Below are positions 5,718-23,600 of a DNA stretch of 32,000 nucleotides, piece after piece. The position numbers and the translations under genes were made by a program. Positions within the stretch are counted from its first letter, which is position 1, and every line of letters starts with the position of its first letter. Where the stretch lies: contig NZ_RSDW01000001.1 of the NCBI RefSeq assembly GCF_003945235.1, positions 4,230,001 to 4,262,000 of the forward strand, written 5' to 3'. The notes under the pieces were generated by a model. It searched no databases. It saw only the letters and a list, made by a program, of their open reading frames with translations, and had not been told where the DNA came from. The stretch comes from Edaphobacter aggregans. Its GTDB lineage: Bacteria; Acidobacteriota; Terriglobia; Terriglobales; Acidobacteriaceae.

Positions 5718-5796
5718 GTGCTGAGTTGTTAACTCATAGACAAGTCCTTCGTCCCGACGGAGTCTTTGGAACGATGCAGGAATGGAGTTGCGGTGT

Positions 5797-8505: not shown

Positions 8506-8548
8506 CGGCGACAACGTATTCAGATAAATCTCGTCAATGGAGGCACAC

Positions 8549-10477
8549 ATGAAAAAGACACGGTGTACAGCAGCGTTGGCGATGGTTGCCGTTATGTGCA
8601 CGGCGCCCGCGCACCCGCAACTCAACTTCTGTTTCGGTCCGACGATCGCGCGTAGCGTCCCCAACCCTGTCTTCGACGGCAACATCGACGGGGATAACGG
8701 CTGGCTAAATTCGTTCTTGTACCGTGGCGGAAACGGCGCACCGGACGCCGACATCATCCTGCAGGGGAACAGCTTTACAGACGGCGGCGGCCACCAGTGG
8801 CTCGCCCTCGGCGCCAGCGTGCTCAATGACACCGAGTGGGATGCGGGCGACTCCGTAGTTATCCTCTTCAAGTCCGGCAGCGGTTCCTACAACGAGATTG
8901 TGGTCTCCCCGCTTGAGAACGATGTCGCGCCCACCACCCCAATCGCAAACGGCAGGCCCGGGGCCTCGCAGTACTCCACGTCTTCGACCGGATCCCCGGG
9001 AACCTGGACACTTGTTGGCAATGCTCCGTCGTGGGTAACGTGGGGATCCGTTGGCACGGCGGGTGGCGGGGCGTGCACGGCGGCCCAGCCCGGCACCGCA
9101 TGCAAGTGGACGGTCGAACTCGGCATCGACACCACCGCTGCAGCCGCTGCCGGCGTCACCGGAATCATCAGTCTGAATCAGCTCTACGTTGATGTAGTCG
9201 CAATTTTTGACCGCAGCGGCCCGATGAGCTATCAGTCCTCCTGGCCGAATGGAAATACTTTGGTAGACGGGACCGATTTCACGATCACCCCAGCGGTCGC
9301 TAACTGGGGCGGCGCGTCGACCTCACCAAACGCTTGCAAAGGCGTCTCGGTCAGCTACGCCGACATCAGCGCCAGTCCGCTCGACGTTGGTGGAAATCTG
9401 CAGGCGGGTCTGAGCACAACCCTCACTGCGAAACTTCACAACAGCGGCGCCAACGCGAATGGCGTGATTGCTCACTTCAGCCATGCGCCGTTCGGCGTCT
9501 GTGGACTCGTGGACAGCTGTTTCACTGAGTTCGGCACCAGCAACACTCCCGTGAGCTGTCCGAATGGAGGCACCCCGCCATCATGCTGCACCGGAACTGC
9601 CGCATGCATTCCACCCGATATGAGCAACAATGCGGGCACGGCCCTGCAGGCGTCGTGGACGCCCACCAACGCTGACGATGGTCATCAGTGCATTCGAGTC
9701 AAGCTCGAAGCAACTCAGGCCGGCACCACGTTCGCCAGTTCGGGTGACTTTCATAACATGTGGGTCGACCATTCTTCCAATGTGGACGTGCACGCGCGTA
9801 TCGATATGACCAAGGTTCCGGCGCCTGAGGGCGGAGGCAATCAACGCGTCCGCCTCTACTCGTACCGGCAGACTCAGTACGCTTTCTCCGATGGAACCGC
9901 CCCAGGGGTCGCCGCAGCAACATTCACGGCGCAAATCATCACGCAATACCGCGGCTATCGCTACACCGGCAAGCACGTCACTGTCAACAGAGTGAAATCG
10001 GAAATCTGGGACCCCGTCGGCTCGTACGCCTATACCATTCAGCACGAAGTGGATCAGGCGTTCGAAACCGGATTCGAGCAACGCAACGCCACGGTTTTCG
10101 ATCGGTTCTGCGCGAACTATACTGCCGCACGAACGACCTCTGGAAGTGGTGACTGCATCACCACGCTTAAAGCTCGGATGAGAAAAGATCCGGCTTTGGT
10201 GCAACAGGTCAACACCGCGTTGGCGAGCTTGGCGGAGACGCCGAAGGTAACCGATTGGACCTTTGACTTGCAAGGCGTGAAGCATGTTGGCAACAACCCC
10301 GATCAGGTTGAGCTGGAGGTCCCGTTGAACAGTGCCGTCATGCTGCCAACCAAGATCAGCTACGTAGCGGGGAAAAAGCGGTGCTTCGACCTTGTGGGGG
10401 CCGGGGTTCCCGTCAGCGCCTTTGGTCTGACGATTCTGGGCCTTGGTGTTTACCTGCCCCGGAAAAGAAAGGAGTAG
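8549..10477 (+). CDS. Secreted/surface protein with signal peptide, CARDB-like and Cys-rich regions, and a C-terminal hydrophobic anchor plus basic tail
   Basis: GGAGG (8539-8543) lies 5 nt before ATG 8549; the track start at 8537 is less likely. The signal-peptide-like N-terminus is MKKTRCTAALAMVAVMCTAPAHPQ. VFDGNIDGDNGW resembles the start of CBM9-type domains. VSVSYADISASPLDVGGNLQAGLSTTLTAKLHNSGANANGVIAHF resembles CARDB. There is a Cys cluster, CGLVDSCF...SCPNGGTPPSCCTGTAAC. The C-terminus is GAGVPVSAFGLTILGLGVYLPRKRKE, a TM helix followed by a basic tail. Confidence 0.75.
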   Translation: MKKTRCTAALAMVAVMCTAPAHPQLNFCFGPTIARSVPNPVFDGNIDGDNGWLNSFLYRGGNGAPDADIILQGNSFTDGGGHQWLALGASVLNDTEWDAGDSVVILFKSGSGSYNEIVVSPLENDVAPTTPIANGRPGASQYSTSSTGSPGTWTLVGNAPSWVTWGSVGTAGGGACTAAQPGTACKWTVELGIDTTAAAAAGVTGIISLNQLYVDVVAIFDRSGPMSYQSSWPNGNTLVDGTDFTITPAVANWGGASTSPNACKGVSVSYADISASPLDVGGNLQAGLSTTLTAKLHNSGANANGVIAHFSHAPFGVCGLVDSCFTEFGTSNTPVSCPNGGTPPSCCTGTAACIPPDMSNNAGTALQASWTPTNADDGHQCIRVKLEATQAGTTFASSGDFHNMWVDHSSNVDVHARIDMTKVPAPEGGGNQRVRLYSYRQTQYAFSDGTAPGVAAATFTAQIITQYRGYRYTGKHVTVNRVKSEIWDPVGSYAYTIQHEVDQAFETGFEQRNATVFDRFCANYTAARTTSGSGDCITTLKARMRKDPALVQQVNTALASLAETPKVTDWTFDLQGVKHVGNNPDQVELEVPLNSAVMLPTKISYVAGKKRCFDLVGAGVPVSAFGLTILGLGVYLPRKRKE

Positions 10478-10479
10478 CA

Positions 10480-11322
10480 ATGTCGGCTGGAAATGAAGAA
10501 CTGTTCTTCCATGTGCCGCGGTCGCTCGCAGGCTTCGATCCTTCGATGGTTTGGGCGGCGGGGCTGCTTGCTGCGAGCGCTCATGCGGTCTTCTCGGCAT
10601 GGCGTGCGGGACTAAGTACACGCGCCATGTATCGGGCAGTCGTCTTGTCACTTCTGGGCGGCCTCTGGGGTGCGAATCTGCTTTCTTTACTGGTACACGG
10701 CTGGGAGGGCGGACCGCTGGCTGCCTTTGCGTTCGTGCAAGGCGGGAAGAGTCTGTTCGGAGGACTGCTGCTTGGTGGGTTTGCCGCGGTACTCTATTTC
10801 CACTATCGCAAGTTGCCCATGCTCGCCTACGCTGACGCGGGCATGCTGGCTCTTACGCTCGGTTACGCCATCGGTCGCATTGGATGTTTCCTGAATGGGG
10901 ATGACTACGGCACGTTAACCCACGTTCACTGGGCGGTTGTGTATCCACCGGGGACGGAGGCGTACGAAGCACATCTCGAGCGTGGCTGGATTTCTCCGGG
11001 AGATGCTTGGTCTCTGCCCATCCACCCAGTCCAACTCTATGCGTCCTTGCTGGGGCTAGCTCTCTTCGTCGTGCTCGTGGCCTGGCGTCCTAAGTGGGAG
11101 GGCAGTCGACTCTGCGCCTACCTGATTATTTACGGAGTTAGCCGATTTTTTTTGGAGTATCTCCGCGGCGACTTCCGAAGAGTGCTTGGAACTTTCTCTC
11201 TCCCGCAGCTCTTTAGCCTCTGCTTTATTTCCCTGGGTTTGGTCCTCTGGCTTCATCGAGGAAGGGTGCAAGCCACTGCAATTTCCAGCGCCCCCGTTCC
11301 GGATCAAGCGAGGTCTTGCTAA
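10480..11322 (+). CDS. lgt: Prolipoprotein diacylglyceryl transferase (Lgt) family protein, probable paralog embedded in the eCIS locus
   Basis: ATG 10480 lies 5 nt after AAAGGAG (10468-10474), which sits inside the end of the upstream gene. The track start at 10381 would overlap that gene by about 100 nt. Lgt-family motifs are present: GGKSLFGGLLLGG (the GG-M-S-x-H-GG region), GRIGCFLNGDDYG, HPVQLYASLL and YGVSRFFLEYLRGD. The protein is multi-pass hydrophobic and about 280 aa, the normal Lgt size. Confidence 0.8.
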   Translation: MSAGNEELFFHVPRSLAGFDPSMVWAAGLLAASAHAVFSAWRAGLSTRAMYRAVVLSLLGGLWGANLLSLLVHGWEGGPLAAFAFVQGGKSLFGGLLLGGFAAVLYFHYRKLPMLAYADAGMLALTLGYAIGRIGCFLNGDDYGTLTHVHWAVVYPPGTEAYEAHLERGWISPGDAWSLPIHPVQLYASLLGLALFVVLVAWRPKWEGSRLCAYLIIYGVSRFFLEYLRGDFRRVLGTFSLPQLFSLCFISLGLVLWLHRGRVQATAISSAPVPDQARSC

Positions 11323-13433
11323 TGGCAAGCACTCTAACCGCGGCTCCATTGCGCTGGCGTCGCCGTTATCCGAACGGAGATCTTGCGATCAAGCTGCGCG
11401 TGTCCCACCTGGTTGAGAGTGTTGATTTCGAGCCACGAGAGCTACCCCCGGCGTCCATCCTGATTGTGCGCCGGCTGGAAGATCCCATGCCACGCTGCTT
11501 GCGCGGCGACCCATCAGCGTTGGCCCCGGCGCCGGCGTGGGAGCGGGCGGCGCGTTCAGCCCTTTCTGGCATCGCCCGACAGACCGCACGGCCCATGCGC
11601 GATTTGGTGCCGTCAAACGCGAACGCGGTCTTATTTGCCGACGAGGCGGAGCTTCTGGCTTGCTTCTCACGCGATCTGTTGCGTGGAGTGGTGTCTTCAC
11701 TCTGGTGGTGGAGGACATTTCTGCGCTCCCTGCCCTCCGCCGCAACGCATGGCCTTCTGGAGGCCTGGCGAACAAATATCCGTTCCGTTCCCTCCGCTCT
11801 TGCCCATCTTTCCGAACGGCGGGAGGCGATTTGGGTGCTGAGTAGTTTTACCCCCGCACATGCGTGGCTGATTCTCGAAGAGATTGCCTGCGGCTTTGAT
11901 CTTAAGTTTGTTGTTGCGGCGCGGAAAGCGTCGAGTGGTGTCACTGCAGAGCTCCCTGTTGCGGGCGCAGGGGCGGCAGCCCATCCTGTAGGCACCATCC
12001 CTTTCTGGCCTTCTCCGCAAGACTCTCCACTTGTTGTCGCACCGTGGCACGGAGTCCTGGCCGACCATATCGTTTCCACCAGTCTGGGCTGGGAGCGATC
12101 GGCGCTGCTTGGCGTTTCTCTTTTGCTGTGTCAATCGCCCAAGATTGTTCGCAGCCAGGAGTTCGCCCGGGCGTTTATTCGCTGGCGCCACTCATCGATC
12201 GGGCCAAGCTACGCCATGCAAACAGACGTTCTTGAGGAAACCAACGAGCCAGAATCCGGATCTCGACCTCAAGCTGTCCCTCCCCTAATTCAGCTCCGAC
12301 GCGGGGATTCGAATGAAGGATTCGATAACGTGAAGTCTTCCGCTCTGGATGGCCCAGACCGACACGCGCATGAGGGTGGCTCCCCGAACTTTGATTTGGC
12401 CCCCGAGCTCGATCCCACCTGCCGGGCTACCGATACTTCAACCGAACGCGAGGGTCTTCGGGCAGCGAGAGGCGAGGGAACAGAATGGGGAGCGGAAGCT
12501 TTGCAGGCGAAGGCCATCGCGCCTCATCTTCCCGTGCCTGGCAAATTAGCGTCACAGTCAGTGCGACGAAATGCGACGGCTGCCGAAGTAGTCGAACCTG
12601 TCCCGGTTGAGGAACTAGCTGGACCTATTCCGGTAATGAAGAAGAGTCTGGCTGCCGGTGAGTGCGTATCGACCGCGCTCGGCGGTGTGTTCTTTCTCAT
12701 CAACGTACTGAAAGCGCTTAGATTGTCGCAATTGCTCGAGCAGGAGTGCGGCTGTCAGCTCGGCTTAGGGAGCTGGGAGCTGATCGAGCTCATAGCCCGG
12801 TTCCTGCTTAGGTCGAGTGATGCCTATCTGGCCCAGGATCCTCTGTGGGCTCTTCTGCTGGTCCTCGACGGCCGCCCAGCGGAACAGAAAGCGGGAGCCG
12901 ACTTCTCTCCGCCGGACTGCTACCGCATTCCGGACTCGTGGGTTCCGGATGATGTAACTGACAGGCTTGAGATTCGTTGTTGCGGGCGCCGGCTCGAAGT
13001 CTGGAACCCGCTCGGGTTTCCCCAGATGGTCCGCTATTTTGATCAACCACCGTCGCGAGCGACCATCGAGCAGGAACTTGAGAAGAACGGAGCGCGGGGA
13101 AAGTTCTCACGTCTCCGCCGTCATCCTTCACTGTATAGAGGCGCCGAGGCGCTCGACCTCGCTTTAGACCGGCCGCTCCGGCGCCTTCTGGCCTTCTTGA
13201 TGCCTTTCTTGCGCTGGCGCCTCGCGGCTGGACTCGGGCTAGGCACCGCTCCAAGACCCGACCTCGCCGAAGCCTTACTGTTACGCGTAGCAAACGTCTG
13301 GGTGACATCAACGCACGTTGATTTAATGATGGGCCTGAACCAGGTGACCGCACCGGTTCGTTGTTCGGGCCTCGATACGGACCCAGGATGGGTTCCGGAA
13401 TTGGGGCGAGTCGTCAAATTTCATTTCGACTAG
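11322..13433 (+). CDS. Hypothetical protein, 703 aa, in the position of the eCIS tape-measure/tail-length protein (Afp14-like by position only)
   Basis: ATG 11322 overlaps the lgt stop (TAATG, 11320-11324). The ORF is long and uninterrupted, with an Arg/Trp-rich N-terminal third (SSLWWWRTFLRS), a disordered acidic middle and a C-terminal domain ending VRCSGLDTDPGWVPELGRVVKFHFD. It lies directly upstream of the AAA+ ATPase. The functional assignment rests on position alone. Confidence 0.6.
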   Translation: MASTLTAAPLRWRRRYPNGDLAIKLRVSHLVESVDFEPRELPPASILIVRRLEDPMPRCLRGDPSALAPAPAWERAARSALSGIARQTARPMRDLVPSNANAVLFADEAELLACFSRDLLRGVVSSLWWWRTFLRSLPSAATHGLLEAWRTNIRSVPSALAHLSERREAIWVLSSFTPAHAWLILEEIACGFDLKFVVAARKASSGVTAELPVAGAGAAAHPVGTIPFWPSPQDSPLVVAPWHGVLADHIVSTSLGWERSALLGVSLLLCQSPKIVRSQEFARAFIRWRHSSIGPSYAMQTDVLEETNEPESGSRPQAVPPLIQLRRGDSNEGFDNVKSSALDGPDRHAHEGGSPNFDLAPELDPTCRATDTSTEREGLRAARGEGTEWGAEALQAKAIAPHLPVPGKLASQSVRRNATAAEVVEPVPVEELAGPIPVMKKSLAAGECVSTALGGVFFLINVLKALRLSQLLEQECGCQLGLGSWELIELIARFLLRSSDAYLAQDPLWALLLVLDGRPAEQKAGADFSPPDCYRIPDSWVPDDVTDRLEIRCCGRRLEVWNPLGFPQMVRYFDQPPSRATIEQELEKNGARGKFSRLRRHPSLYRGAEALDLALDRPLRRLLAFLMPFLRWRLAAGLGLGTAPRPDLAEALLLRVANVWVTSTHVDLMMGLNQVTAPVRCSGLDTDPGWVPELGRVVKFHFD

Positions 13434-13444
13434 GCAGGTAGAAA

Positions 13445-15559
13445 TTGGACCGGGAACTCAATCCCTTTTCTGACGTTCCGTGTACCGCACGAGGGCACTT
13501 AGGTCTCCTTTTTTATGAGGCCGCCTGTCGCGTGATCTTCTATCTGCAGCACCGTTCCCAACTTTCCGGCAACTCTCCGAAACAAGTGTTCGAAACCTTC
13601 CCTTTCCTGTCTTCTTACTGGGAAGAACTGCAGCACCGTTTTCCGGAAATAGAGCAAACTGAACAATTCCTGAATATCCTTCGCACCGAGTGTGACCGAT
13701 GGGAGGAGTCCTGCCAGGAATGGCTTCCGCTGCGCGCCGTTCGCCAACAGGCGTCGCTCGGCGCGGAAGCCGTAGCCTGCCTCGTGCTGGCAGGGCTGAC
13801 AGAACAAGACGCGCGCTTCGGTGAATTGTTCAGTGTCCTGCAGCAGCCGCTGGTACAGCGCCGTCCGACGCTTGGCCTTTTGCAACAGCTGATGCAAATG
13901 GAGCAGGGTCCCTCGGACGCTTGGAACCTTTGCCTGCCGCTTCTCGACCAGGGATTGTTGGTCGCCACCAATCGGGATACACCCAGAGCCGAATGGGCAG
14001 TTCGGGTTCCGTCTGCAGTCTGGAGCGCCCTGCGCGGAGAGTACGCCAAAGAGCCCATTCCTGGAACGAAATATCATCCGTCCGGCGATTTTGCCCCCAT
14101 TCGCGAGCTCATACTTGCTCCCGAACAGCGTGCGCAGCTTTCTGAACTGGTCTTGCTCTTAAGCTCGAATCGAACTCGCGCGGTAGTGGTTCGAGGATTG
14201 GCCGGCAGCCCACGCATCGAAATTTTGGGCAGTATATCCCGCGAAATGGGGCGCGGGCTGTTTGAGGTGGATGGGCCGCTGCTTGCCGACGAAGAGCGTC
14301 GCCGCCTGATTGGCCCCATAGCGATCTTGATCAACTGTATCCCGGCGCTCAGTTTTGAACTCGGGACCGGAGAATCCGTCGATATTCCTCCGCTCGGCGG
14401 CTACGCCGGACCGATCGGGCTTTCCCTCGGTTCCGAGGGTGGATTGGCAGGCCCGTTAATGGATCGTTCGGTCACAGTGCATCTCCAACCGGAGACGCCT
14501 GAGCAGCGCCTTCGCTATTGGCAGCGCGAACTCAAAGACCACTCTGCCGAAGATCTGCACCCGATTGCAAAAGGCTTCACCTTGAGCGGAGGCCATATCC
14601 GGAAAGCAGCAAGAGTAGCCGCCACCCACGCGGCGCTCGACGGCCGCTTAAAAATTAATTCGACGGACGTGCGTCAAGCCACCCGCAACCTTGGCCAGAG
14701 ACTTGAGTTTTTGGCCGCTAGATTGGAGGATGGTGGTGACTGGGCACACTTGGTCGTTCCAGCTTCGACGGAACGCGCCTTACACGATCTCCAGACGCGC
14801 TGCCGTCATCGCGAGCAGCTCGCAACCCTGCTGAGCCGCCAGCTACCAGGTGGACTCAACCGGGGAGTGCGTGCCCTCTTTGAAGGGCCCAGCGGCACAG
14901 GTAAAACTCTTGCCGCAAGGATCCTTGCCTCCGAGCTCGGCCTTGATCTTTATCGCGTGGACCTGGCTGCGTTAATGAACAAATACATCGGGGAGACGGA
15001 GAAGAATCTTAGCCGGGTGCTCAGCCGAGCGGAGGACCTTGACGTAATTCTGCTGCTCGACGAAGGTGACTCGCTGATGAGCCGCCGCACCGACGTCAAG
15101 ACAGCGAACGACCGTTACGCAAACCTGGAAACCAACTACTTGCTGCAGCGCCTCGAAACCTACGTGGGAATCGTCCTCGTAACTACCAATATCGGCGGCG
15201 CGATCGACAGCGCATTTCGGCGGCGCATTGATGCGATTGTCAGATTCCATCTCCCGCAGGCGGAAGAGCGCTGGCGCTTGTGGCAGCTCCATCTCCCACC
15301 GCGACATGCCGTCCAGCCCGACGAGTTGGAGACGATTGCGCTGCGATATGAGATGACAGGCGCCCAGATACGCAATGCCTCCGTGCAGGCGGCCCTGTCG
15401 GCAATGCAGGGTTCGCGCGGAGCGATCAAGGTGGCCGATTTAAGAAACGCGATTCAGTCCGAGTATCGCAAGGCCGGCGCCGCCGTGCCCGTCGAAGAAA
15501 TCAGAAGCGCGGAGTGTCAGGAACACCGCCTCTCAGGTTTTCTTTCCGTAATTTCCTGA
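13445..15559 (+). CDS. AAA+ ATPase, eCIS Afp15/Cis15-like (long N-terminal domain plus one classic AAA module)
   Basis: Walker A is GPSGTGKT (about 14884-14907) and Walker B is ILLLDEGD (about 15046-15069). The surrounding sequence LAARILASELGLDLYRVDLAALMNKYIGETEKNLSRVLSRAE and the sensor/Arg-finger region VTTNIGGAIDSAFRRRID are typical of the classic AAA clade. The start is apparently TTG at 13445, with no in-frame ATG nearby. The N-terminal ~470 aa domain resembles those of eCIS ATPases. Confidence 0.9.
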   Translation: MDRELNPFSDVPCTARGHLGLLFYEAACRVIFYLQHRSQLSGNSPKQVFETFPFLSSYWEELQHRFPEIEQTEQFLNILRTECDRWEESCQEWLPLRAVRQQASLGAEAVACLVLAGLTEQDARFGELFSVLQQPLVQRRPTLGLLQQLMQMEQGPSDAWNLCLPLLDQGLLVATNRDTPRAEWAVRVPSAVWSALRGEYAKEPIPGTKYHPSGDFAPIRELILAPEQRAQLSELVLLLSSNRTRAVVVRGLAGSPRIEILGSISREMGRGLFEVDGPLLADEERRRLIGPIAILINCIPALSFELGTGESVDIPPLGGYAGPIGLSLGSEGGLAGPLMDRSVTVHLQPETPEQRLRYWQRELKDHSAEDLHPIAKGFTLSGGHIRKAARVAATHAALDGRLKINSTDVRQATRNLGQRLEFLAARLEDGGDWAHLVVPASTERALHDLQTRCRHREQLATLLSRQLPGGLNRGVRALFEGPSGTGKTLAARILASELGLDLYRVDLAALMNKYIGETEKNLSRVLSRAEDLDVILLLDEGDSLMSRRTDVKTANDRYANLETNYLLQRLETYVGIVLVTTNIGGAIDSAFRRRIDAIVRFHLPQAEERWRLWQLHLPPRHAVQPDELETIALRYEMTGAQIRNASVQAALSAMQGSRGAIKVADLRNAIQSEYRKAGAAVPVEEIRSAECQEHRLSGFLSVIS

Positions 15560-15588
15560 TAACTCTGGCGCCCGCAAGGTCCAAGAAC

Positions 15589-18500
15589 ATGGCTGACGTA
15601 CAAAGGGTTCATAAGACGCGCGACAGGTCACAGGCTGCTAGGTCTGGGGGCCAGGAACCGCCTGCGCCGGCCGCAGCCCCCGCTGCACCAGCGTGGCTTG
15701 CGGCGCCTACGGCTGCGCCGTTCTCGATCGGCGGAGTGCAACGCAAGGTTGCTATTGGCGCGAGCAACGATGCCTACGAACGCCAGGCAGATCAGGTTGC
15801 AAACCGGGTGGCAAGTGGTGGCCGTATAGCGCCCGGTTCTATTTCCAGCATCGCGCCAGGCGCGCTTGGCCAGCGCCAATCCAAAGACGAGAAGAAAAAA
15901 GGGCCGGCATCCGCTCCGCCAGTACAGCGGGAAGTCAAGCCTGAAGATAAAACCAAAGACGCAAGAGCAGCAATGCCGGTGCAGAAGCAGGCAAAGCCTG
16001 ACGATAAGCAAGATAAGAAAGCAGCGCCAGTACAGAGGGAGACGAAGGCGAAAGACAGAAAGCAAGACAGCGACGCAAAAGCACCGGCCGTCCAGCGCGC
16101 CGGGAAGGACGATAAGGAAAAGCGGGAAGAAAAAAAGCTTGAGGACAAGCTACCTCCAGCGGTGCAGCGTAAGGTGCGCCCTGAAGATAAGAAGAAGATA
16201 GAAAGAGACTGGTCGGCTCCTTTGCAGATGAAGTCCAAGCCCGAGGAAAAGGACAAGACCGCGCCCCTATCTCCAGTACAGAGAGAATCGAAATCAAAAG
16301 AAGATGAGAAGAACGATTTATCCGCTGCTGCTCCTATCCAGCGCGCGGACAAGCCTGAAGAGAAAAAGAAAGACGAGAAACCCGCGGCTCCTGCACCGCT
16401 TCAGAAACAAGCGAAGCCCGAGCAGAAGAATAACAAGAAGGAGGATTCGCCAGGGGCTGCACCTGTTCAACGTGCCGAAACCAACCAGGTCCCCAGGCAT
16501 GAGGAGAAGCCCGTCCAGACCAGCCGAGGAGGAGGAGGCGCCACGGCAGCCCCTTCGATGGAAAGCGCCGCTTCGCACGCCATCGCCAGCAAAGGGCCAG
16601 GTGTACCAATCAACTCAGGAACCCGGGGGACGCTGGAGTCCGGAATGGAAACTGACCTCAGCGATGTACGTGTCCACAGCGATACGCGAGCGCACGAGGC
16701 CTCAGAGGCGCTGAATGCTCGCGCCTTTACGCATCAGAATGACATCTGGCTAGGCCGCGGCGAATCCCAGTCCGACACGCGGTTGATGGCGCACGAAGCC
16801 GCGCACGTCGTGCAGCAAACGGGCAGCGTGCACCGGCAGTTGGTGCAAAGGGACGACAAACCGGCAGCTGCCGGCTCCAAAAACACGGGGGAAACCACTG
16901 CGGCGCCGGCATCGGGTTGGGACTACGAAGGAAAAGAGGGCAAGGTCCAGAAGGACAAGAAGCTTGTCTTGCCTCTCTTGCGAGTTCCTGATTTCAAGAA
17001 GCCGCCAATAACGCCTTCTTCTCTCACTCTGCCGCAAAAGACAGATGAGCCTCGCCCGGATACTCAACGAACGATCTGGGAAAAGGATGTCAAGGCAGGA
17101 AGCGCAATTGACACAAAGCTCAACAAGAAGATTGCGGATGAGAAGGCCCCCAGTCTGCAAAAGAATGGTGAACCCAACTATTTCCTTCAACTCAAGGGTC
17201 AGGATATTTACCTGATCGGCTCGAAAGATACATTGAAGCAAGGTCTTCTGCGGCCTTATTGGGAGCCTTCAGGAAGGCCCAACTCGTTTCAGGTGGACCA
17301 CAAACAAGAACTTCAATTAGGGGGCACCAATTCCATAGAGAACATGTGGCTCCTAGACGCGGACGCGAACATGAGTTCCGGCCGCAACATTAAGGCGGAG
17401 CGGGACTCTCGAATTCAAACGCTGCTCAATGCTGCCATCAAGAAGGGGGTTTGGAAAGAGCCGCCAGACGTAGAAGCCGTGCGTCGCGGCTACACGATCG
17501 AAGTGGAAAAAGTCATGGGCGGTCTGGATGTTGGAGGCAAGCCCGATAGCCGATGGACCAGGGAAGCAATCAAAGACGCTGCCTTGCAACTTGACGGCCT
17601 GAAATGCCTCACAAAAGACCAAATCAATAAAAAGGGCCTGCAGGGCACGGCAAGTCGGATCGTTATTTACACCAATCCGGCAGGCGGCGGAGTGCGATAC
17701 AGCGAGGGATGGCAGGACGGTCAGACTGAAAGAAAACAAGACTTTCACTTCGGCAAAATGTTTCAGATTACGAAAGTTAACTACGACCGAAACAGCAAGC
17801 AGGGCTCAGTGGAAGGGAACGTATTCCGGGGTAGCCACTTTTTCCAAGAGGTCAAATTGCCCCCTATTCCTTTGCAGGAAATGGACGTTGTCGACTACGG
17901 GGGTTTCATTTCGGTGTCCGCACTTACGCGAACGATTCAGCACGAGCTGAAACTAAAGGGTCTCAGTGCTGTGCAAATCGATGAAGCTCAGCTGACCGAC
18001 AGAGGATTGGTCGCCCGCGGCAAAGTGCAGCCCAGCATCCGGCCTTTTGACAAAGTCAGCCTCGATCTCATCATCGATGGCGACAATATTTATCTCAGCA
18101 AGGTTTTTAGTGCCGACGACTTCAATTTTCCCGGTCCCATTAAAGCGACCAGCGCAAGTCTCGAAATATTTGCGGGCACTCAGGGAGTCGGCGTTAGGGG
18201 CGACGTCCACATTGAAATTGAGCGGTTAGGCAAAGGCAAGATTACAGCTGGAGTGTCGACCAGCGAAGGGCCAAAAATCGAAGGAGACTTCGAATTTGAC
18301 ACCGATCTCTTCGACCCTGCAAAAGTTCACGTCGAGTACTTTCAAGGGAGATTCAGCGGTGGAGGCAAGATCGGCGTCAAGCCGGGCAAAGTACGCGGCA
18401 TCAAGTCTGCAAGTATTGACGCTTCTTTCACAGAAGACGTTATCGATGCTAAGGGCTCGATCATGCCTGACATTCCGGCCGTGGAACAGGCCGACCTTGC

Positions 18501-19620
18501 CATGCACTATGACGAGAAGTCCGGACTGACCATTGCCGGCGACCTGCAACTAAAGAAAGACATTCCTGGACTTGCTGATGGCTCCATTCACGCCGAAGTA
18601 AATAAAAAAGACGATAAGTACCTTGTAAAGGCGCACGGCGAGGCCACACCTAAGATCCCCGGCATTACTTCCAAGCTGATGGTGACCTACGACGATGGCG
18701 CCTTCGACGCCATCGTTATTGCGGGCTACGAAAAAGGAATGCTCAAAGGCTCGGTCATCGCGGGTGCGACGAACCGTCCGGTGGATGACAGCGGCAAACC
18801 CGGGGAAGTATCGCCCGCCAAAGCCGACAAGATCACACTGTACGGCGGCGGTTCGGTCACGCTCCAACTGGCGCCTTGGTTACAAGCCACAGCGGTTATC
18901 AAGTTCAAGCCTGACGGCGACGTTCAGGTCACCGGCAAGATCGGCCTGCCCAGCGTTCTCGACATCTTCGATGAAAAGAGGATCGACAAAAATATTTTCA
19001 AGATCGGCATTTATATCCCCATTGTGCCCGGTGTTGCCTTAAACGTCGGCGGTGGAGTTGACTTGAGCGCGGGTATCGGACCGGGACAATTGCAGGAGGT
19101 GGAGGTAGACGTCACTTACGATCCTGCGAAAGAAGATGAGACCAATGTGCACGGCCACGCTGCGCTGCATATACCCGCCCATGCTGGGTTGCGCATGAAT
19201 GTGCACGCGGCGCTCGACGTCGGTGTCCCCCTTGCCGACGTCGAAGGGGGAATTGAACTGGGTGGAACGCTGGGGATTGCAGGCGCGCTCCACGCTGGAG
19301 TTGACATTGATTGGACGCCGAAGAAAGGTCTCGTCCTGGACGCAAGCGCCGAAATTTATGGCGAGCCCAAGTTCAGATTCGACATAACCGGTTATGTCAA
19401 AGTGGAAGTTGGCGTCGGGCCTCTTTCGGAAACGCTCTGGGAAAAAAGGTGGGAGCTGGCTGCCATTGAATATGGCTCTGGCCTGCGCCTGGGACTTAAG
19501 TTGCCGGTTCATTACCAAGAAGGTAAGCCCTTCAACGTTTCACTTAGCGACATACAATTTGAAGTTCCGAATGTGGATCCAATGAGCGTCCTCAAGGGAC
19601 TTATCGACCAGATTACGTAA
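15589..19620 (+). CDS. DUF4157 (eCIS-associated HExxH domain) protein, putative eCIS cargo/toxin: charged repeat N-terminus, DUF4157, HNH-like motif, Gly-rich beta-type C-terminal domain
   Basis: ATG 15589 (MADVQRV...) is preferred over the track start at 15514, which overlaps the ATPase gene by 46 nt. The DUF4157 signature is LESGMETDLSDVRVHSDTRAHEASEALNARAFTHQNDIWLGRGESQSDTRLMAHEAAHVVQQ (about 16600-16830; HEAAH at 16792-16806). The gene lies directly after the AAA+ ATPase, where eCIS loci usually encode payloads. Confidence 0.9.
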   Translation: MADVQRVHKTRDRSQAARSGGQEPPAPAAAPAAPAWLAAPTAAPFSIGGVQRKVAIGASNDAYERQADQVANRVASGGRIAPGSISSIAPGALGQRQSKDEKKKGPASAPPVQREVKPEDKTKDARAAMPVQKQAKPDDKQDKKAAPVQRETKAKDRKQDSDAKAPAVQRAGKDDKEKREEKKLEDKLPPAVQRKVRPEDKKKIERDWSAPLQMKSKPEEKDKTAPLSPVQRESKSKEDEKNDLSAAAPIQRADKPEEKKKDEKPAAPAPLQKQAKPEQKNNKKEDSPGAAPVQRAETNQVPRHEEKPVQTSRGGGGATAAPSMESAASHAIASKGPGVPINSGTRGTLESGMETDLSDVRVHSDTRAHEASEALNARAFTHQNDIWLGRGESQSDTRLMAHEAAHVVQQTGSVHRQLVQRDDKPAAAGSKNTGETTAAPASGWDYEGKEGKVQKDKKLVLPLLRVPDFKKPPITPSSLTLPQKTDEPRPDTQRTIWEKDVKAGSAIDTKLNKKIADEKAPSLQKNGEPNYFLQLKGQDIYLIGSKDTLKQGLLRPYWEPSGRPNSFQVDHKQELQLGGTNSIENMWLLDADANMSSGRNIKAERDSRIQTLLNAAIKKGVWKEPPDVEAVRRGYTIEVEKVMGGLDVGGKPDSRWTREAIKDAALQLDGLKCLTKDQINKKGLQGTASRIVIYTNPAGGGVRYSEGWQDGQTERKQDFHFGKMFQITKVNYDRNSKQGSVEGNVFRGSHFFQEVKLPPIPLQEMDVVDYGGFISVSALTRTIQHELKLKGLSAVQIDEAQLTDRGLVARGKVQPSIRPFDKVSLDLIIDGDNIYLSKVFSADDFNFPGPIKATSASLEIFAGTQGVGVRGDVHIEIERLGKGKITAGVSTSEGPKIEGDFEFDTDLFDPAKVHVEYFQGRFSGGGKIGVKPGKVRGIKSASIDASFTEDVIDAKGSIMPDIPAVEQADLAMHYDEKSGLTIAGDLQLKKDIPGLADGSIHAEVNKKDDKYLVKAHGEATPKIPGITSKLMVTYDDGAFDAIVIAGYEKGMLKGSVIAGATNRPVDDSGKPGEVSPAKADKITLYGGGSVTLQLAPWLQATAVIKFKPDGDVQVTGKIGLPSVLDIFDEKRIDKNIFKIGIYIPIVPGVALNVGGGVDLSAGIGPGQLQEVEVDVTYDPAKEDETNVHGHAALHIPAHAGLRMNVHAALDVGVPLADVEGGIELGGTLGIAGALHAGVDIDWTPKKGLVLDASAEIYGEPKFRFDITGYVKVEVGVGPLSETLWEKRWELAAIEYGSGLRLGLKLPVHYQEGKPFNVSLSDIQFEVPNVDPMSVLKGLIDQIT
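15870..16525 (+). repeat. In-frame degenerate tandem repeat: about 10 units of [P/A]-[V/L/I]-Q-[R/K/M] followed by a Lys/Glu/Asp-rich spacer (16-24 aa per unit)
   Basis: The units, read directly from the translation, are: PVQREVKPEDKTKD, PVQKQAKPDDKQDKK, PVQRETKAKDRKQDSDAK, AVQRAGKDDKEKREEKK, AVQRKVRPEDKKKIERD, PLQMKSKPEEKDKT, PVQRESKSKEDEKND, PIQRADKPEEKKKDEK, PLQKQAKPEQKNNKKED, PVQRAETNQVPRHEEK and PVQTS. Isolated VQR motifs also occur at about 15598, about 15739 and about 16843. The DNA here is strongly purine-rich on the coding strand. Confidence 0.75.
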
Positions 19621-19640
19621 CCACGTGATGGAGGTGGGTT

Positions 19641-20693
19641 ATGCAAGACGATACAACGTTTTCTCTCACCGGCGCGAGCCGGCTGAACGGCAGCGGTGGC
19701 GTGAACGGCCAGAAGTTCGGCTCGCGCGACGCTAACGATCGAGGCGCGCGGCGACACCTCGAGGGCGATGTGGAAGGAGCAAAAGCTGAATACCTGTCGG
19801 CACTCGAACTGGATTCCGGCAACGCGACTGCGCATAACAATCTCGGTTTCCTGCTGTCCCAGGAAGGTCAATTAGACAAGGCCATCGCCCATTACCAGCT
19901 AGCCCTCGAAATTGACCCGCAGAAGAGCATGGCCATGGCCAACATGGGGCTCGTAGAGGGCGCTCAGGGCAATGATAAGGCCGCTGTGGAATGGCTTCGC
20001 CGCGCGGTAGGGGCCAACACTGGCAACGTTCTTGCCTGGGATAATCTAAGCCGATTGCTGCTGAAAATGGGCCGGCTTACCGAGGCCGAAGCCGCGGCGC
20101 GAACTGCCCTGGAGGCCGCACCCCATGAGGGGCGCTTTTACCTCACCTTGGGACTGGCCGTCGCCGGGCAGCAGCGCCTGACGGAAGCGGTCGAGATATT
20201 CAAACGCACTGTCCACCTTGATCCTAATTCAGCAAATAGCTGGGAACAATTGGGCGTAGTGCTCTGGCTCCGGCAGGATCTGGGTTCTGCAGCCGACGCT
20301 CTTCGGCGCGCCGTTACGCTCGACTCGCAAAGCGTCTCGGCTCGCTATCATCTGGCCCTGGTTCTGTTGACCAGGGGCGAGCACGAAGCCGCGGTCAAGG
20401 AGCTGGAATCTGTTCTGGCCATCGAACCGGGTCATGCCGCCGCGCAACTAGATCTGGCGGTACTTTCAGTCTCGCAGGGCGATGCCGCGGGGGCTCTCGA
20501 CAGACTGGAAGTAATCCTGCACAGTGACCCGGAGAATCCGCGGGCCCTTTTTTACCGCGCGGTCGCACTTGATCAGTCGCAGCGAACTAGCGAAGCCACG
20601 GAGCTCCTGCAGGCACTGGCTGACGCCGGCAAAGGCAAGTATTCGCAGCGAGCGCACGTCTATCTGGAAGAAAGGAGCGGGAGACACTCCTAG
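19641..20693 (+). CDS. Tetratricopeptide (TPR) repeat protein
   Basis: GGAGG (19630-19634) lies 6 nt before the ATG. About eight consecutive 34-aa TPR units are visible, for example AEYLSALELDSGNATAHNNLGFLLSQEGQLDKAIAHYQLALEIDPQKSMAMANMGLV and ...FKRTVHLDPNSANSWEQLGVVLW. The gene starts 20 nt after the DUF4157 gene and ends 6 nt before the next gene. Confidence 0.9.
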   Translation: MQDDTTFSLTGASRLNGSGGVNGQKFGSRDANDRGARRHLEGDVEGAKAEYLSALELDSGNATAHNNLGFLLSQEGQLDKAIAHYQLALEIDPQKSMAMANMGLVEGAQGNDKAAVEWLRRAVGANTGNVLAWDNLSRLLLKMGRLTEAEAAARTALEAAPHEGRFYLTLGLAVAGQQRLTEAVEIFKRTVHLDPNSANSWEQLGVVLWLRQDLGSAADALRRAVTLDSQSVSARYHLALVLLTRGEHEAAVKELESVLAIEPGHAAAQLDLAVLSVSQGDAAGALDRLEVILHSDPENPRALFYRAVALDQSQRTSEATELLQALADAGKGKYSQRAHVYLEERSGRHS

Positions 20694-20699
20694 TGATCC

Positions 20700-23600
20700 A
20701 TGAATGCTGCCATCGCCCAGCCCGATCCTATCGTCCTGCCGCAGGTCGCCGAGTCACGCGCGTTGCCGCACGAGCTCAAGGATTTCCGCGGCCATCACGC
20801 CGGCGAAACCATCCTCGTCTGCGGCTGTGGATCGTCGTTGTCGGATATTGTCTCTCCGGACCGCTTCATTACTATCGGGGTCAACGATGTGGGCCGGCTA
20901 TTCCAACCGGATTACCTGGTTGTCTTGAATCCCAGGCAGCAGTTCCACAACGACCGTTTTCAATTCGTTGAGCAGAGTCGCGCCCGCGCCATCTTCACAC
21001 AACTGAATTTGGGCATCCTTCATCCTCACATCGTCCGCTTTCGATTGGGAAAATTCGGTGGCGTAGATTTCTCCGACCATTCTTGCCTGCACTACACCCG
21101 AAATTCTCCGTACCTGGCCATGTGCCTAGCGATTCACATGGGTGCCACGAGGATCGGACTGATCGGGGTGGATTTCAATGCCGATCATTTCTTCGCAAAA
21201 ACAGGCCAGCATCCGCTCACCCGTCAGCTTCCGCAAATCGATCAGGAGTATAAGCGTCTCTATGATGCCTGCAACAGGCAAGGGATAGAAGTCGTCAACC
21301 TAAGTGCCAACAGCCGTCTCACAGCACTCCCCAAAATGTCACCCGAAGAGTTCGCATCGCGTGGGCAATCGAAGAAGTCTCTGAATGTGGTTTCCTATTC
21401 CACTACACCTGTAGCAGGCGTGCCTGCCATCTTGGCCAGGTGTATCGCATCCCGCACTGCGCACACCTGCCGCACAGTGTGGGCAACAAAAAGCTATTCC
21501 AACGGTGTGGCTTTTGACGGAGATGTTGAGTGGCAGCGGTTACCCGAGGTCGCCGAAACGCTCTTGCGATCTGCCGATTTGGTGATTGTCCACAATGGAA
21601 AAGTAGATGAGCGCCACCGGGCATTCCTTCGCAACAAGCCGATTATCACCATGGCCCACAATTACATCTCGAACATCGACCAGGCATTCTTGCAGCAAGG
21701 ATTTCCCGGTGTAGTCGTCGGCCAGTACCAGGCCGCTCTGCCCGAGTTTAAGGGGTGGCACGTGGTCCCCAATCCCGTACCGTTGTGGGAGACCGCGTTT
21801 CAGCCCATCGCTAAACAGCTGCCCATCACGATTTGTTACACCCCTTCCGGGAAGCACGATACCTATCCAAGAAATCATCGGCTTTACTGGCACTCCAAGG
21901 GTCATAGTTCAACCATACGAGTGTTAGAGAGCCTCGCACGGCGCTATGAAGTGCAACTTGAAGTCATCCGCGGCAGTCAAGTATCCCATGCCGAATCGCT
22001 CGCCATGAAGCGTCGCGCCCACATCGTGATCGATGAATGCGTTACTGGCAGCTATCATCGAAATAGCTTGGAAGGGTTAGCCCTCGGTTGCGTGGTCGTG
22101 AATGGAGTAGGCAGCGTGCCGTCGATCGCAGATCTGCTCACTCACTGCGCTGGTGGGGCCGTGGAGATTCCGTTTGTGCAGGCCGGCCTTGATGATTTGG
22201 AACGAGTGTTGACCATCCTGATAGAACGTGGCGCCGCGGCGCTTGTCGCGCAGGGAGAGCGCAATCGCAGATGGATGGAAGAGCGATGGGACTTTCGACA
22301 GCAATGGACACGTTTCTGGGAACCTGCGGTCGATCAGGCAACTCGGCCGCGACGGCATAGTGCTGCCAGCGTTCACCTCGCTCATAGCGCCCCCCTTAGA
22401 GGAGAAAAAGGCGTGAGCCACCAAATAGCGGCGACTGTACTAGCAGAGGGATTAAGCGTGGTTGTTTGTCAGGGCGGAAAGGAGCGTTTGCCTCAACTCG
22501 GAGCATCACTGGCCAATCTTCGGCAATGCGAGGGTGTGAGCGAAATCATCGTGGCAGAGATGGGCTGCGCCCCTGTCGCCGAGGAACTGGCTCGTCGCTG
22601 GGCAGACAAGTACGCGTTTGTGAAAGCCGATGATGCTTTCGAACGGGCACGCGCTTTAAACATAGGTACTTCCCTGGCAGAGTACGACCTGGTCCTTTGG
22701 ATGGACAACGACCTGATCATGTCCCCGGACTTCATTAGCAAAGCAGTCAAAGAGATGCGTGCAAACGGGTTGGACTATTTGATCCCTTACGCTCGATTAG
22801 ACTGCTTGTCGGCATCCGATAGTAAGGCCGTGATGCAAGGAGTTTGTAACCCCGCGGATTGTGCCGTCGCTGGCGTGTATCTACCGCTCCGCCCCGCTTA
22901 TGGAGGGGCGGGAATCGTCAAACGATCTTTCATTCTCGAATACGGAGGAATCTCAGAAGACTTTCGAGGTTGGGGTGGGGAAGACGATGCCTGGTGGCAT
23001 AAAGCCAGCCTTCTCGGACGGGCCGACGTGACTCAGCAGCGAAATCAATCCCTTCATCATCTGTTCCACCTAAACTCCGGCTCTTACACAAAGCAGAAGG
23101 AGAGCAATCCACACTACTCCCGAAACGTGGCTGCGCTTAAGGAGATCTCTTCCGTTCGCGACCGCGAGACTTTCCTTAAGCGCTTTCAGCCGCCGCGGGT
23201 CTCATGGAGCTGGGAGAATAAATCCATAGCGTTCGTCAGCCGCCATATTGGTTCGGACTCTTTGCCCAGTGCTGTGGCGCATCACCTGTCGAAATTGGTC
23301 TTAGGCCAGGTTCTTCCGCAAGTCCTGACCGATAACGATGTTGCCTCTAAGGACTGGTTTGCAAAGAATTCGCCCGATGCCCTGGTCCTCTGCGGTCTGG
23401 AGTCGGCTATACCCGTCTTAGCCGATGAGGCGCAGAGTGCGATATGGAGAAAAACGATTGTTATTCATACTGGAGGAGACCTGACGGTTGATGTTGCACA
23501 ACCGCTGCAACGAGCGGGAGCGATCGTCTGCCTGAGTGGTGCGGATGCGACACAACTCCGAAAGGCGGGGCTGCGGCCATGGACTTGTGGCCGGTCCGCC

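Follow-up and report, generated by a model that had tools for sequence, protein, structure and literature searches.

The closest described relative of the system treated here is AlgoCIS, a contractile injection system (CIS) of Algoriphagus machipongonensis encoded by the cluster ALPR1_12680-12765 (A3HTA7-A3HTC4; PMC8894135). AlgoCIS carries two cargo proteins, Cgo1 (498 residues) and Cgo2 (1228 residues; bioRxiv 10.64898/2026.05.27.728243), both of which were detected by mass spectrometry in purified particles (PMC8894135). Of the wild-type tubes 96% are filled, and of those of the double mutant 93% are empty; the density extends along the entire lumen and is lost on contraction, and particles without Cgo1/2 still form and have been purified and imaged (PMC8894135). 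Deletion of the disordered N-terminal domain (NTD) abolishes loading, whereas neither DUF4157 nor the C-terminal domain is needed; the AAA+ ATPase Alg15 and its Walker B glutamate are required for loading of Cgo1/2, and unfolding of the cargo is presumed (bioRxiv 10.64898/2026.05.27.728243). The subject here is a gene for a 1343-residue DUF4157 protein within a 32,000-nucleotide stretch of Edaphobacter aggregans DNA (contig NZ_RSDW01000001.1, positions 4,230,001 to 4,262,000; hereafter the window). Its product is almost certainly a member of the Cgo2 family and probably a CIS cargo.

In BLASTP, residues 318-1338 of the window protein align with residues 149-1218 of A. machipongonensis A3HTA9 (1125 columns, 31% identity, E 4e-165). 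This alignment covers the DUF4157 domain, the DH..N..N motif and the whole C-terminal beta domain, while an N-terminal motif aligns separately. A3HTA9 (EAZ83077.1, 1228 residues) was reached through a family relative in a Cyclobacteriaceae locus (L007). The order of genes in the Algoriphagus locus is CIS_TMP (tape measure, 537 residues), a DUF4157 protein (498), A3HTA9 (1228), a tetratricopeptide repeat (TPR) protein (289) and an AAA+ protein (435). Since A3HTA9 is the third accession of the cluster, and since its length and that of the preceding 498-residue protein equal the published sizes, it is identified with ALPR1_12690 and Cgo2. An earlier note on this DNA had divided the window protein into a charged N-terminus, a DUF4157 domain with an HEAAH motif, an HNH-like motif and a beta-type C-terminus, and all four parts were confirmed. 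Its statement that no characterised effector matches this combination and size does not stand, as Cgo2, at 1228 residues and 31% identity, is built of the same four parts. Cgo2 and the Edaphobacter gene belong to one very widespread family of conserved architecture, which gives concrete residues and constructs to probe, and 'DUF4157 proteins' of ~1200-1400 residues can be named as Cgo2-family CIS cargo in genome annotation. AlgoCIS is under development as a programmable protein-delivery particle, and Cgo2 is its largest cargo.

The proposal of the earlier note that the protein is a likely injected CIS cargo is supported by orthology to the experimentally tested cargo Cgo2 and by the Alg15 homologue encoded upstream. 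The lumen location, loading and release of Cgo2 would presumably hold in Edaphobacter too. Taken as a whole, the gene is likely to encode a conserved Cgo2-family cargo acting in the following steps. The charged, unstructured N-terminal region, with the motif PhiQxKLxhGxxxDxYExEADxxA and hydrophobic-Gln (PhiQ) repeats, would be recognised by the upstream-encoded AAA+ ATPase. The downstream-encoded TPR protein, itself not in the particle, would probably keep the aggregation-prone beta domain competent for loading. On sheath contraction the protein would be expelled with the tube and refold in or at the target, where the middle domain would most likely serve as a metal-dependent HNH-type nuclease and the C-terminal amphipathic beta-meander would most likely engage a lipid bilayer. 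The DUF4157 HExxH module lies between the presumed loading sequence and the payload, with processing or refolding as candidate roles.

The N-terminal region of ~330 residues had been described as charged and disordered, with which composition and charge-hydropathy agree. Residues 100-335 contain 24.7% Lys+Arg, 18.3% Asp+Glu, 11% Pro and 14.5% Ala and are placed among disordered sequences by their charge-hydropathy values (H 0.32, the boundary being at 0.435), disorder being judged here from composition; residues 1-335 are the part of the whole family alignment richest in indels. Tandem Repeats Finder detected no DNA-level repeat under the ten PVQR units (Table 1), which are therefore not a recent expansion. 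Hydrophobic-Gln dipeptides are enriched in the NTD of the closest homologue (12 against 2.5 expected, z ~7), with a family median z of 3.1. The spacers between them are basic/acidic in the window protein and acidic in Cgo1/2.

Within this region lies a conserved motif, VQRKVAIGASNDAYERQADQVANRVA, in which D61-x2-E64-x2-A67-x3-A71 is invariant in the family alignment. Its general form, PhiQxKLxhGxxxDxYExEADxxAxxV, occurs in 206 of 233 family members and also in Cgo1 and Cgo2. Beyond the family it is present in 91 of the 108 (84%) DUF4157 open reading frames (ORFs) of 79 genome loci (L005-L083) from many phyla, archaea included. In these ORFs it lies 110-350 residues 5' of HExxH, independent of the type of C-terminal domain, and outside the coverage of PF13699. 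As judged by sequence comparison, a conserved linear motif thus clearly exists within DUF4157 cargos. According to the AlgoCIS preprint, loading sequences are not conserved among the PVC, MAC and AlgoCIS systems (bioRxiv 10.64898/2026.05.27.728243). The motif may be recognised by the AAA+ loader or by a tube or baseplate component; in one study, a small DUF4157 protein is reported to bind the tube initiator. The motif, rather than disorder alone, may be the signal for the AAA+ loader in DUF4157 cargos. A description of an N-terminal motif shared by most DUF4157 proteins was not found in the literature searched.

The second part matches PF13699 (now eCIS_core) over residues 340-412 with a score of 76.4 bits, far above the cut-off of 22 (E 1.9e-21), and the HEAAH motif at 402-406 is intact, as the earlier note had proposed; the profile search it had called for as a check thus gave a strong match. 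H402, E403, H406 and Q409 are invariant in 22 homologues. Confidence of the AlphaFold2 model in this domain, as the mean predicted local distance difference test (pLDDT), is 82-92 for most blocks and 70 for the first. DUF4157 is the domain most specific to extracellular CIS (eCIS) known (PMC8213781). The linkage to CIS genes expected of eCIS_core is found in the window, where Baseplate_J, a CIS12-family protein, a weak CIS13 match and the AAA+ ATPase are encoded in the same operon.

A low-confidence linker of ~30 residues separates DUF4157 from the middle domain, which AlphaFold2 models with high confidence when residues 436-705 are taken alone (pLDDT 95.5, predicted template modelling score 0.87). 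The motif D570-H571...N585...N594 begins 158 residues past DUF4157. D570, H571, E574, Q576, L577, G579, N585, L589, N594 and G598 are invariant down to 24% identity, and [DE]H..[ED].[QE] is found in 254 of 273 family proteins. In the model, whose residue 1 is residue 436 of the protein, strand 132-136 ends in D135-H136 (D570-H571), N150 (N585) precedes strand 151-155 and N159 (N594) opens a long helix, 156-183. The modelled core (pLDDT >95) thus has beta-beta-alpha-metal topology with conserved His and Asn. HNH domains make up 11 of the first 12, and about half of the top 25, in the list of non-significant Foldseek matches, among them type I-F Cas8-HNH, McrA, Gme HNH, EsaD and IscB; for the best-superposed HNH structures the alignment spans 41-48 columns, at 3.2-4.4 Å. 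When all PDB sequences were searched with a profile built from 60 diverse core segments, five matches had E<=10. Four of these are nucleases of the HNH type, namely two Cas9 HNH domains, St1Cas9 and a DUF262/DUF1524 enzyme, and the three printed alignments register on DH...N...N. The spacing from His to Asn to Asn is 14 and 9, presumably equal to that of D839/H840/N854/N863 in SpCas9.

Several results stand against an HNH nuclease. The Pfam HNH family (PF01844) matches the window protein below threshold (14.8 bits against 21.4), and it does so in 8 of 22 members (best E 0.01), among which single weak matches to HNH_5 and Endonuclea_NS_2 also occur. Foldseek against the PDB with the 270-residue domain returned nothing significant (best E 0.79), and the profile matches to Cas9 HNH reach only E 0.2-2 and are non-significant. 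Killing of E. coli has been reported for Cgo1 only, though Cgo2 was also expressed (PMC8894135), which disfavours a constitutively active cytoplasmic DNase. The HNH-like motif of the earlier note therefore stands as a conserved motif 158 residues past DUF4157, while every match to an HNH family is sub-threshold. The middle domain probably has a His-Me finger (HNH) fold, set in an otherwise unmatched domain; as to whether it is an active nuclease, the model and the arguments above leave the chances evenly divided. An invariant HNH-type motif on a beta-beta-alpha core within an unmatched fold was not found in the literature searched.

The sub-threshold HNH evidence, together with the lack of reported Cgo2 toxicity, also bears on a different placement of activity, in which the DUF4157 HExxH module would be the active, metallopeptidase-like part and DH..N..N a structural or nucleic-acid-binding relic without catalysis. 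The invariance of HExxH and the eCIS specificity of DUF4157 (PMC8213781) would agree with this. However, HExxH mutations in Cgo1 left toxicity intact and DUF4157 is dispensable for loading, and invariant D, H, N and N in the catalytic register of Cas9 HNH are hard to explain without a metal site. This placement is rather improbable, and an HNH-type core in the middle domain is preferred.

The part of the protein following DUF4157 is conserved far beyond the closest relatives. A search with residues 430-1343 yielded 44 proteins at 24-79% identity, with PF13699 at the N-terminus and lengths of 988-1429 residues in all but four (522-944 residues). The beta domain alone, run in filter-free HMMER against 1.84 billion cluster representatives, matched 997 clusters (defined at 50% identity), 443 of them at E<=1e-30. 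In the best 150 of these the match lies at the C-terminus, and most of the proteins have 1150-1400 residues. Relatives over the full length are spread across Acidobacteriota, alpha-, beta- and gamma-Proteobacteria, Bacteroidota, Chloroflexota and Cyanobacteria. Because the relatives share length and an N-terminal PF13699, the region after DUF4157 represents a fixed architecture and not a variable toxin module. The earlier note had cited DUF4157 as fused to variable toxin domains; for this C-terminal part that does not apply, the 997 representative clusters forming a conserved family. No relative with a known structure or a named family emerged: the whole-protein sequence search against PDB chains gave no match, the full-alignment profile search gave only low-complexity matches and a very weak match to the HExxH of BepA, NCBIfam and PHROGs hold no family for the window protein, and Foldseek against viral predicted structures found nothing significant. 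A homologue search with an 83-column profile of the HNH core gave no match. Family variants of ~2250-2400 residues (P0049, P0050, P0073, P0137, P0182) match the beta domain in two stretches. One locus (L023, 1464-16534) encodes a 2281-residue member after a CIS_TMP gene that is itself preceded by another ORF of 2231 residues.

Every locus inspected has the family member beside CIS genes, so that a gene unlinked to eCIS loci in relatives, which the earlier note had named as evidence against its proposal, was not encountered. In 13 of the 13 family loci with scanned upstream genes, a CIS_TMP or CIS AAA+ gene lies beside the member. In the window, L001, L009 and L066 the member has the AAA+ gene as its immediate upstream neighbour; in L003 and L004 only an ORF of 51-76 residues stands between the two. 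CIS_TMP is upstream in L006, L007, L010, L012, L023, L078 and L084, adjacent unless a small ORF or a second DUF4157 gene intervenes. The two most distant relatives examined (L003 and L004; 24-30% identity) are mid-operon, between cap/AAA genes and tube, spike and baseplate genes. In Aquimarina rubra (L010, 9995-11908), a 637-residue DUF4157 protein with an OmpA-like, peptidoglycan-binding domain is encoded directly 5' of the family member and 3' of the tape-measure gene; it resembles a second, different cargo, like Cgo1 in Algoriphagus.

The genes flanking the window cargo gene also have AlgoCIS counterparts. Within the ATPase module the AAA+ protein shares 37% identity with Alg15 (E 1e-55), and the TPR protein is colinear with the Algoriphagus TPR protein encoded between cgo2 and alg15 (26% identity, E 2e-21), so that both linked genes expected of the Cgo2 family, Alg15-type AAA+ and TPR, are present. 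An all-TPR gene (290-350 residues) is directly 3' of the cargo gene in the window and in L001, L005, L006, L007, L012 and L084, in three phyla, and is absent beside more distant relatives. The Algoriphagus TPR gene lies within the published range of the 18-gene AlgoCIS cluster (PMC8894135). 'TPR' occurs nowhere in the text of the AlgoCIS paper or the later preprint, and the label of this gene was not found in the AlgoCIS supplements. By analogy, the TPR protein may be a chaperone of the aggregation-prone beta domain before AAA+-driven loading.

The C-terminal beta domain had been described as a Gly-rich beta region of ~640 residues, and this was borne out: residues 701-1343 contain 12.1% Gly and are modelled as antiparallel strands. 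The AlphaFold2 model of residues 330-1343 (mean pLDDT 80.2) has ~40 consecutive antiparallel strands in this domain, with next-neighbour connectivity and lengths of mostly 10-13 residues (three of 28). One modelled strand face is 76% hydrophobic and 6% charged, the other 23% hydrophobic and 34% charged. On the hydrophobic face, aromatic residues are commoner at the ends of strands (13/62) than elsewhere (7/129; Fisher p 0.002, in a post hoc test on one sequence). In hhalign profile self-comparison, a two-hairpin duplication relates residues ~922-975 to ~980-1035 (probability 97.8%). The 22 Foldseek matches in the PDB that reach E<=0.001 all belong to LptD barrels or to the lipid belt of ApoB100 (E ~1e-5), while MTP, VDAC and other outer-membrane barrels have weaker E-values. 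The superposition is poor, with template modelling (TM) scores of 0.10-0.29 and root-mean-square deviations of 20-40 Å, and on the model the likeness to barrels and lipid-binding sheets is one of local sheet geometry, not of fold. A membrane-active or lipid-engaging beta domain, for which that poor superposition is a drawback, is the preferred reading of the model, held tentatively; a soluble sandwich or solenoid may be what the strands form instead. A repetitive amphipathic beta-meander C-terminus of this kind was not found described in the literature searched. One 28-residue strand, NVHGHAALHIPAHAGLRMNVHAALDVGV (window 19144-19227, residues 1186-1213), has five His on its polar face and a purely aliphatic opposite face. 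The histidines of NVHGHAALHIPAHAGLRMNVHAALDVGV are kept only in close relatives and could be a pH-sensitive element.

Membership of the domain among transmembrane beta-barrels such as LptD, VDAC or porins was considered and rejected, as TM scores of 0.10-0.29 show no global superposition. Nor does the protein have the signal peptide and C-terminal aromatic beta-signal of outer-membrane barrels: the N-terminus is charged and disordered, and the C-terminus is a helix ending ...GLIDQIT.

Conservation of the payload in ~1000 clusters over several phyla, unlike that of polymorphic toxins, raises the possibility that the protein is a conserved delivery helper and not a toxin. The beta domain, chaperoned beforehand by the TPR protein, would then form a pore or translocon in the target membrane and give passage to other cargo or to the protein's own nuclease domain, by analogy with type III secretion translocators and their TPR class II chaperones, or with phage ejection proteins. 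Amphipathic strands of 10-28 residues with aromatic ends, significant Foldseek matches confined to barrels and lipid-binding sheets, the conserved TPR partner and the delivery of cargo in an unfolded state would all be in keeping with such a role, and a second, different DUF4157 cargo accompanies the member in Algoriphagus and Aquimarina. Outer-membrane barrels can fold into bilayers unaided, which would suit unfolded delivery. Yet no barrel is matched globally (TM <=0.29), the C-terminus ends in a helix with no evidence of barrel closure, distant family members are without the TPR gene, and single and double cgo mutants gave no comparable known phenotype. A helper role of this kind is unlikely. 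Still less likely is the more specific possibility, taken jointly, that the Cgo2 family is the conserved 'translocator' of many CIS. The protein would be delivered unfolded and its beta domain would self-fold in the target membrane as a large beta-barrel-like pore; the TPR chaperone would silence it in the producer until loading, and the pore would carry or admit the HNH nuclease. If true, a phage-tail-like machine would here be injecting a beta-barrel membrane protein, and this reading would also account for the conservation of this one payload across phyla, in contrast to the variability of other DUF4157 cargos. The preferred reading remains that of a Cgo2-family cargo with a putative nuclease and a possibly lipid-engaging C-terminus.

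Two further alternatives concern where the protein acts and what it does in the particle. In Streptomyces davawensis, the tape-measure-related effector Tme follows or sets tube length, inserts helices in the membrane and carries a nuclease. The window protein resembles it in the N-terminal DUF4157, the large ORF and the nuclease-like module, and the distant relatives P0036 and P0043 lie between the AAA gene and tube-initiator/spike genes, which is the position of tme. Against a role of the Tme type, the protein shows neither a tape-measure nor a coiled-coil signal and lacks transmembrane helices (19-residue hydropathy peaks at 1.6), its payload is all-beta, dedicated CIS_TMP genes lie upstream of members in seven loci, Algoriphagus included, and AlgoCIS particles form without Cgo1/2. 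In position, too, the window gene differs, following baseplate and fibre-region genes, and only L003/L004 are tme-like. With tape-measure homology, coiled coil and transmembrane helices all missing, this alternative is largely refuted and has hardly any probability left. Alternatively, the protein might not be injected and might act in the producer, in particle release or lysis, envelope remodelling or regulated cell death, as proposed for cytoplasmic Streptomyces CIS. The locus holds genes for envelope functions (Lgt and a giant glycosyltransferase/methyltransferase), and AlgoCIS is without a known target. However, the Cgo2 orthologue is inside the tube and leaves on contraction, and the window protein is without a signal peptide or membrane anchor, which makes producer-side action very improbable.

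For the interpretation as an injected, toxin-bearing cargo, some difficulties do remain. Conservation of a payload across phyla to this degree is unusual for a toxin, and none of the cell types tested responded to AlgoCIS particles (PMC8894135). The Edaphobacter system is known here from genes alone, and the sheath and tube part of its locus is outside the window.

The cargo gene itself is firmly delimited. The product from ATG 15589 to the stop at 19620 is identical to RSL17998.1 of E. aggregans. An alternative annotation, WP_185827223.1, starts 49 codons downstream; the upstream 'MAxxQRxHKPR' is kept in homologues, which favours the start at 15589. Homologues of the 4-kb ORF at 24-79% identity exclude a chance ORF. 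Only 29 nucleotides separate the AAA+ stop from the cargo ATG, and only 20 the cargo end from the TPR gene, so the three genes look co-transcribed. With Baseplate_J, CIS12 and a weak CIS13 encoded on the same strand, the cargo gene is placed at the 3' end of a CIS operon (Table 1). No CIS_TMP match was found anywhere within the window, and no second DUF4157 cargo was seen there.

Table 1. Features of the cargo gene, its product and the surrounding CIS operon (window coordinates)
Feature	Position	Strand	Basis or remark
Cargo gene, 1343 aa; Cgo2-family CIS cargo, E. aggregans RSL17998.1	15589..19620	+	ORF translation and exact database match
N-terminal low-complexity charged region (aa 1-335), presumed loading sequence	15589..16593	+	Composition, charge-hydropathy
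Conserved N-terminal motif VQRKVAIGASNDAYERQADQVANRVA (aa 50-75)	15736..15813	+	Family alignment
Ten P[VIL]Q[RKM]-x-K-P-E/D-K-rich units, period ~19 aa (aa 111-300)	15919..16488	+	Regex listing
DUF4157 / eCIS_core (aa 340-412)	16606..16824	+	PF13699; HEAAH aa 402-406 = nt 16792-16806
Middle alpha/beta domain (aa 443-700)	16915..17688	+	AlphaFold2 model; no whole-domain PDB match
Putative HNH-type core D570 H571 ... N585 ... N594 (to G598)	17296..17382	+	Invariant columns, topology
C-terminal all-beta domain (aa 701-1343), Gly-rich, amphipathic strands, hairpin repeats	17689..19617	+	DSSP of AlphaFold2 model
AAA+ ATPase, Alg15/Cis15 homologue (cargo loader)	13445..15559	+	PF00004 E 3.8e-22
TPR protein, conserved downstream partner	19641..20693	+	TPR family matches
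Baseplate_J	52-1419	+	Pfam/NCBIfam match
CIS12-family baseplate protein	1429-4347	+	Pfam/NCBIfam match
CIS13, weak match	4338-5717	+	Pfam/NCBIfam match

Other genes of the operon have less usual contents. A gene for prolipoprotein diacylglyceryl transferase, Lgt (10381-11322; PF01790, E 1.3e-41), lies inside the CIS operon, flanked by unannotated fibre-region genes on one side and the AAA+ gene region on the other, and is kept in the syntenic locus L001 (4866-5714). Lgt is unusual in a CIS locus and might indicate lipidation of the particle or of an accessory protein. Directly 3' of the TPR gene, at 20700-26735, a multidomain protein of 2011 residues is encoded that contains two GT2-type glycosyltransferase regions, a Caps_synth/DXD region and at least one S-adenosylmethionine (SAM) methyltransferase domain; its counterpart in L001, in the same place (15210-20156), has 1648 residues. 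Four operon ORFs, 11316-13433 (705 residues), 5782-7185 (467), 7267-8505 (412) and 8537-10477 (646), match nothing in Pfam, NCBIfam or PHROGs even at E 10, save for a weak match of the 467-residue ORF to TSP3_bac (E 0.15). The 705-residue ORF is just 5' of the AAA+ gene and has a 712-residue counterpart in L001. In the CIS12-family protein, residues 792-849 match glycoside hydrolase family 42 (E 2e-10); this stretch may be a module borrowed for carbohydrate binding or trimerisation. After a gap 3' of the giant glycosyltransferase follow three overlapping ORFs on the forward strand (27944-28549, 28549-30669 and 30666-31976), the second of which (706 residues) matches only an N-terminal P-loop (AAA_16, E 8e-6). 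They may be an unrelated NTPase-based module.

Compared with known systems, the middle domain shares with HNH/His-Me finger nucleases (PF01844; Cas9 HNH, McrA, Gme HNH) a beta-beta-alpha core in which DH ends the first strand, an Asn precedes the second and another stands at the start of the helix. It differs in matching below every family threshold, in its motif, DHxxELQLGG, with invariant E574 and Q576, and in the setting of the core within a 260-residue domain without structural match. Tme (BN159_7576) of S. davawensis, which associates with the spike/tube-initiator complex, is likewise a very large CIS-associated protein with an N-terminal DUF4157 and a His-dependent nuclease module, but its transmembrane helices, coiled coils, tape-measure homology and C-terminal EndA-like nuclease have no equivalent in the window protein. 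The PVC payloads (Pnf, Pdp1) and MAC effectors (Mif1, Pne1) are likewise carried in the lumen, have a disordered N-terminal packaging region and depend on a Pvc15-type AAA+ protein, and Pne1 is also a nuclease; they are without DUF4157 and the shared motif, and their payloads are unrelated. In type III secretion, translocators with TPR class II chaperones offer another case of a membrane-active secreted protein beside a small non-exported all-TPR protein. Those translocators are helical and show no homology, so that the likeness is one of analogy only.

The closest counterparts remain the AlgoCIS cargos. Cgo1 (498 residues) also has a disordered NTD with the motif (FFGVQAKLETGKPGDKYEQEADAMADKVV) and PhiQ repeats, followed by DUF4157, and is lumen cargo, but its C-terminal domain is short and unrelated, and Cgo1 is toxic in E. 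coli. Cgo2 has the same four-part architecture and is colinear over ~1020 residues, sharing the N-terminal motif, DH..N..N and the beta domain; its gene, too, has an Alg15-like AAA+ gene nearby and, directly downstream, a gene for a TPR protein. The NTD of the window protein is ~190 residues longer and lysine-rich with PVQR repeats, whereas that of Cgo2 is acidic. Gene order differs as well, being AAA-cargo-TPR in the window and TMP-cgo1-cgo2-TPR-AAA in Algoriphagus. The Edaphobacter operon, without a visible second DUF4157 cargo in the window, holds Lgt and a giant glycosyltransferase and belongs to an Acidobacteriota host, whereas AlgoCIS comes from the Bacteroidota.

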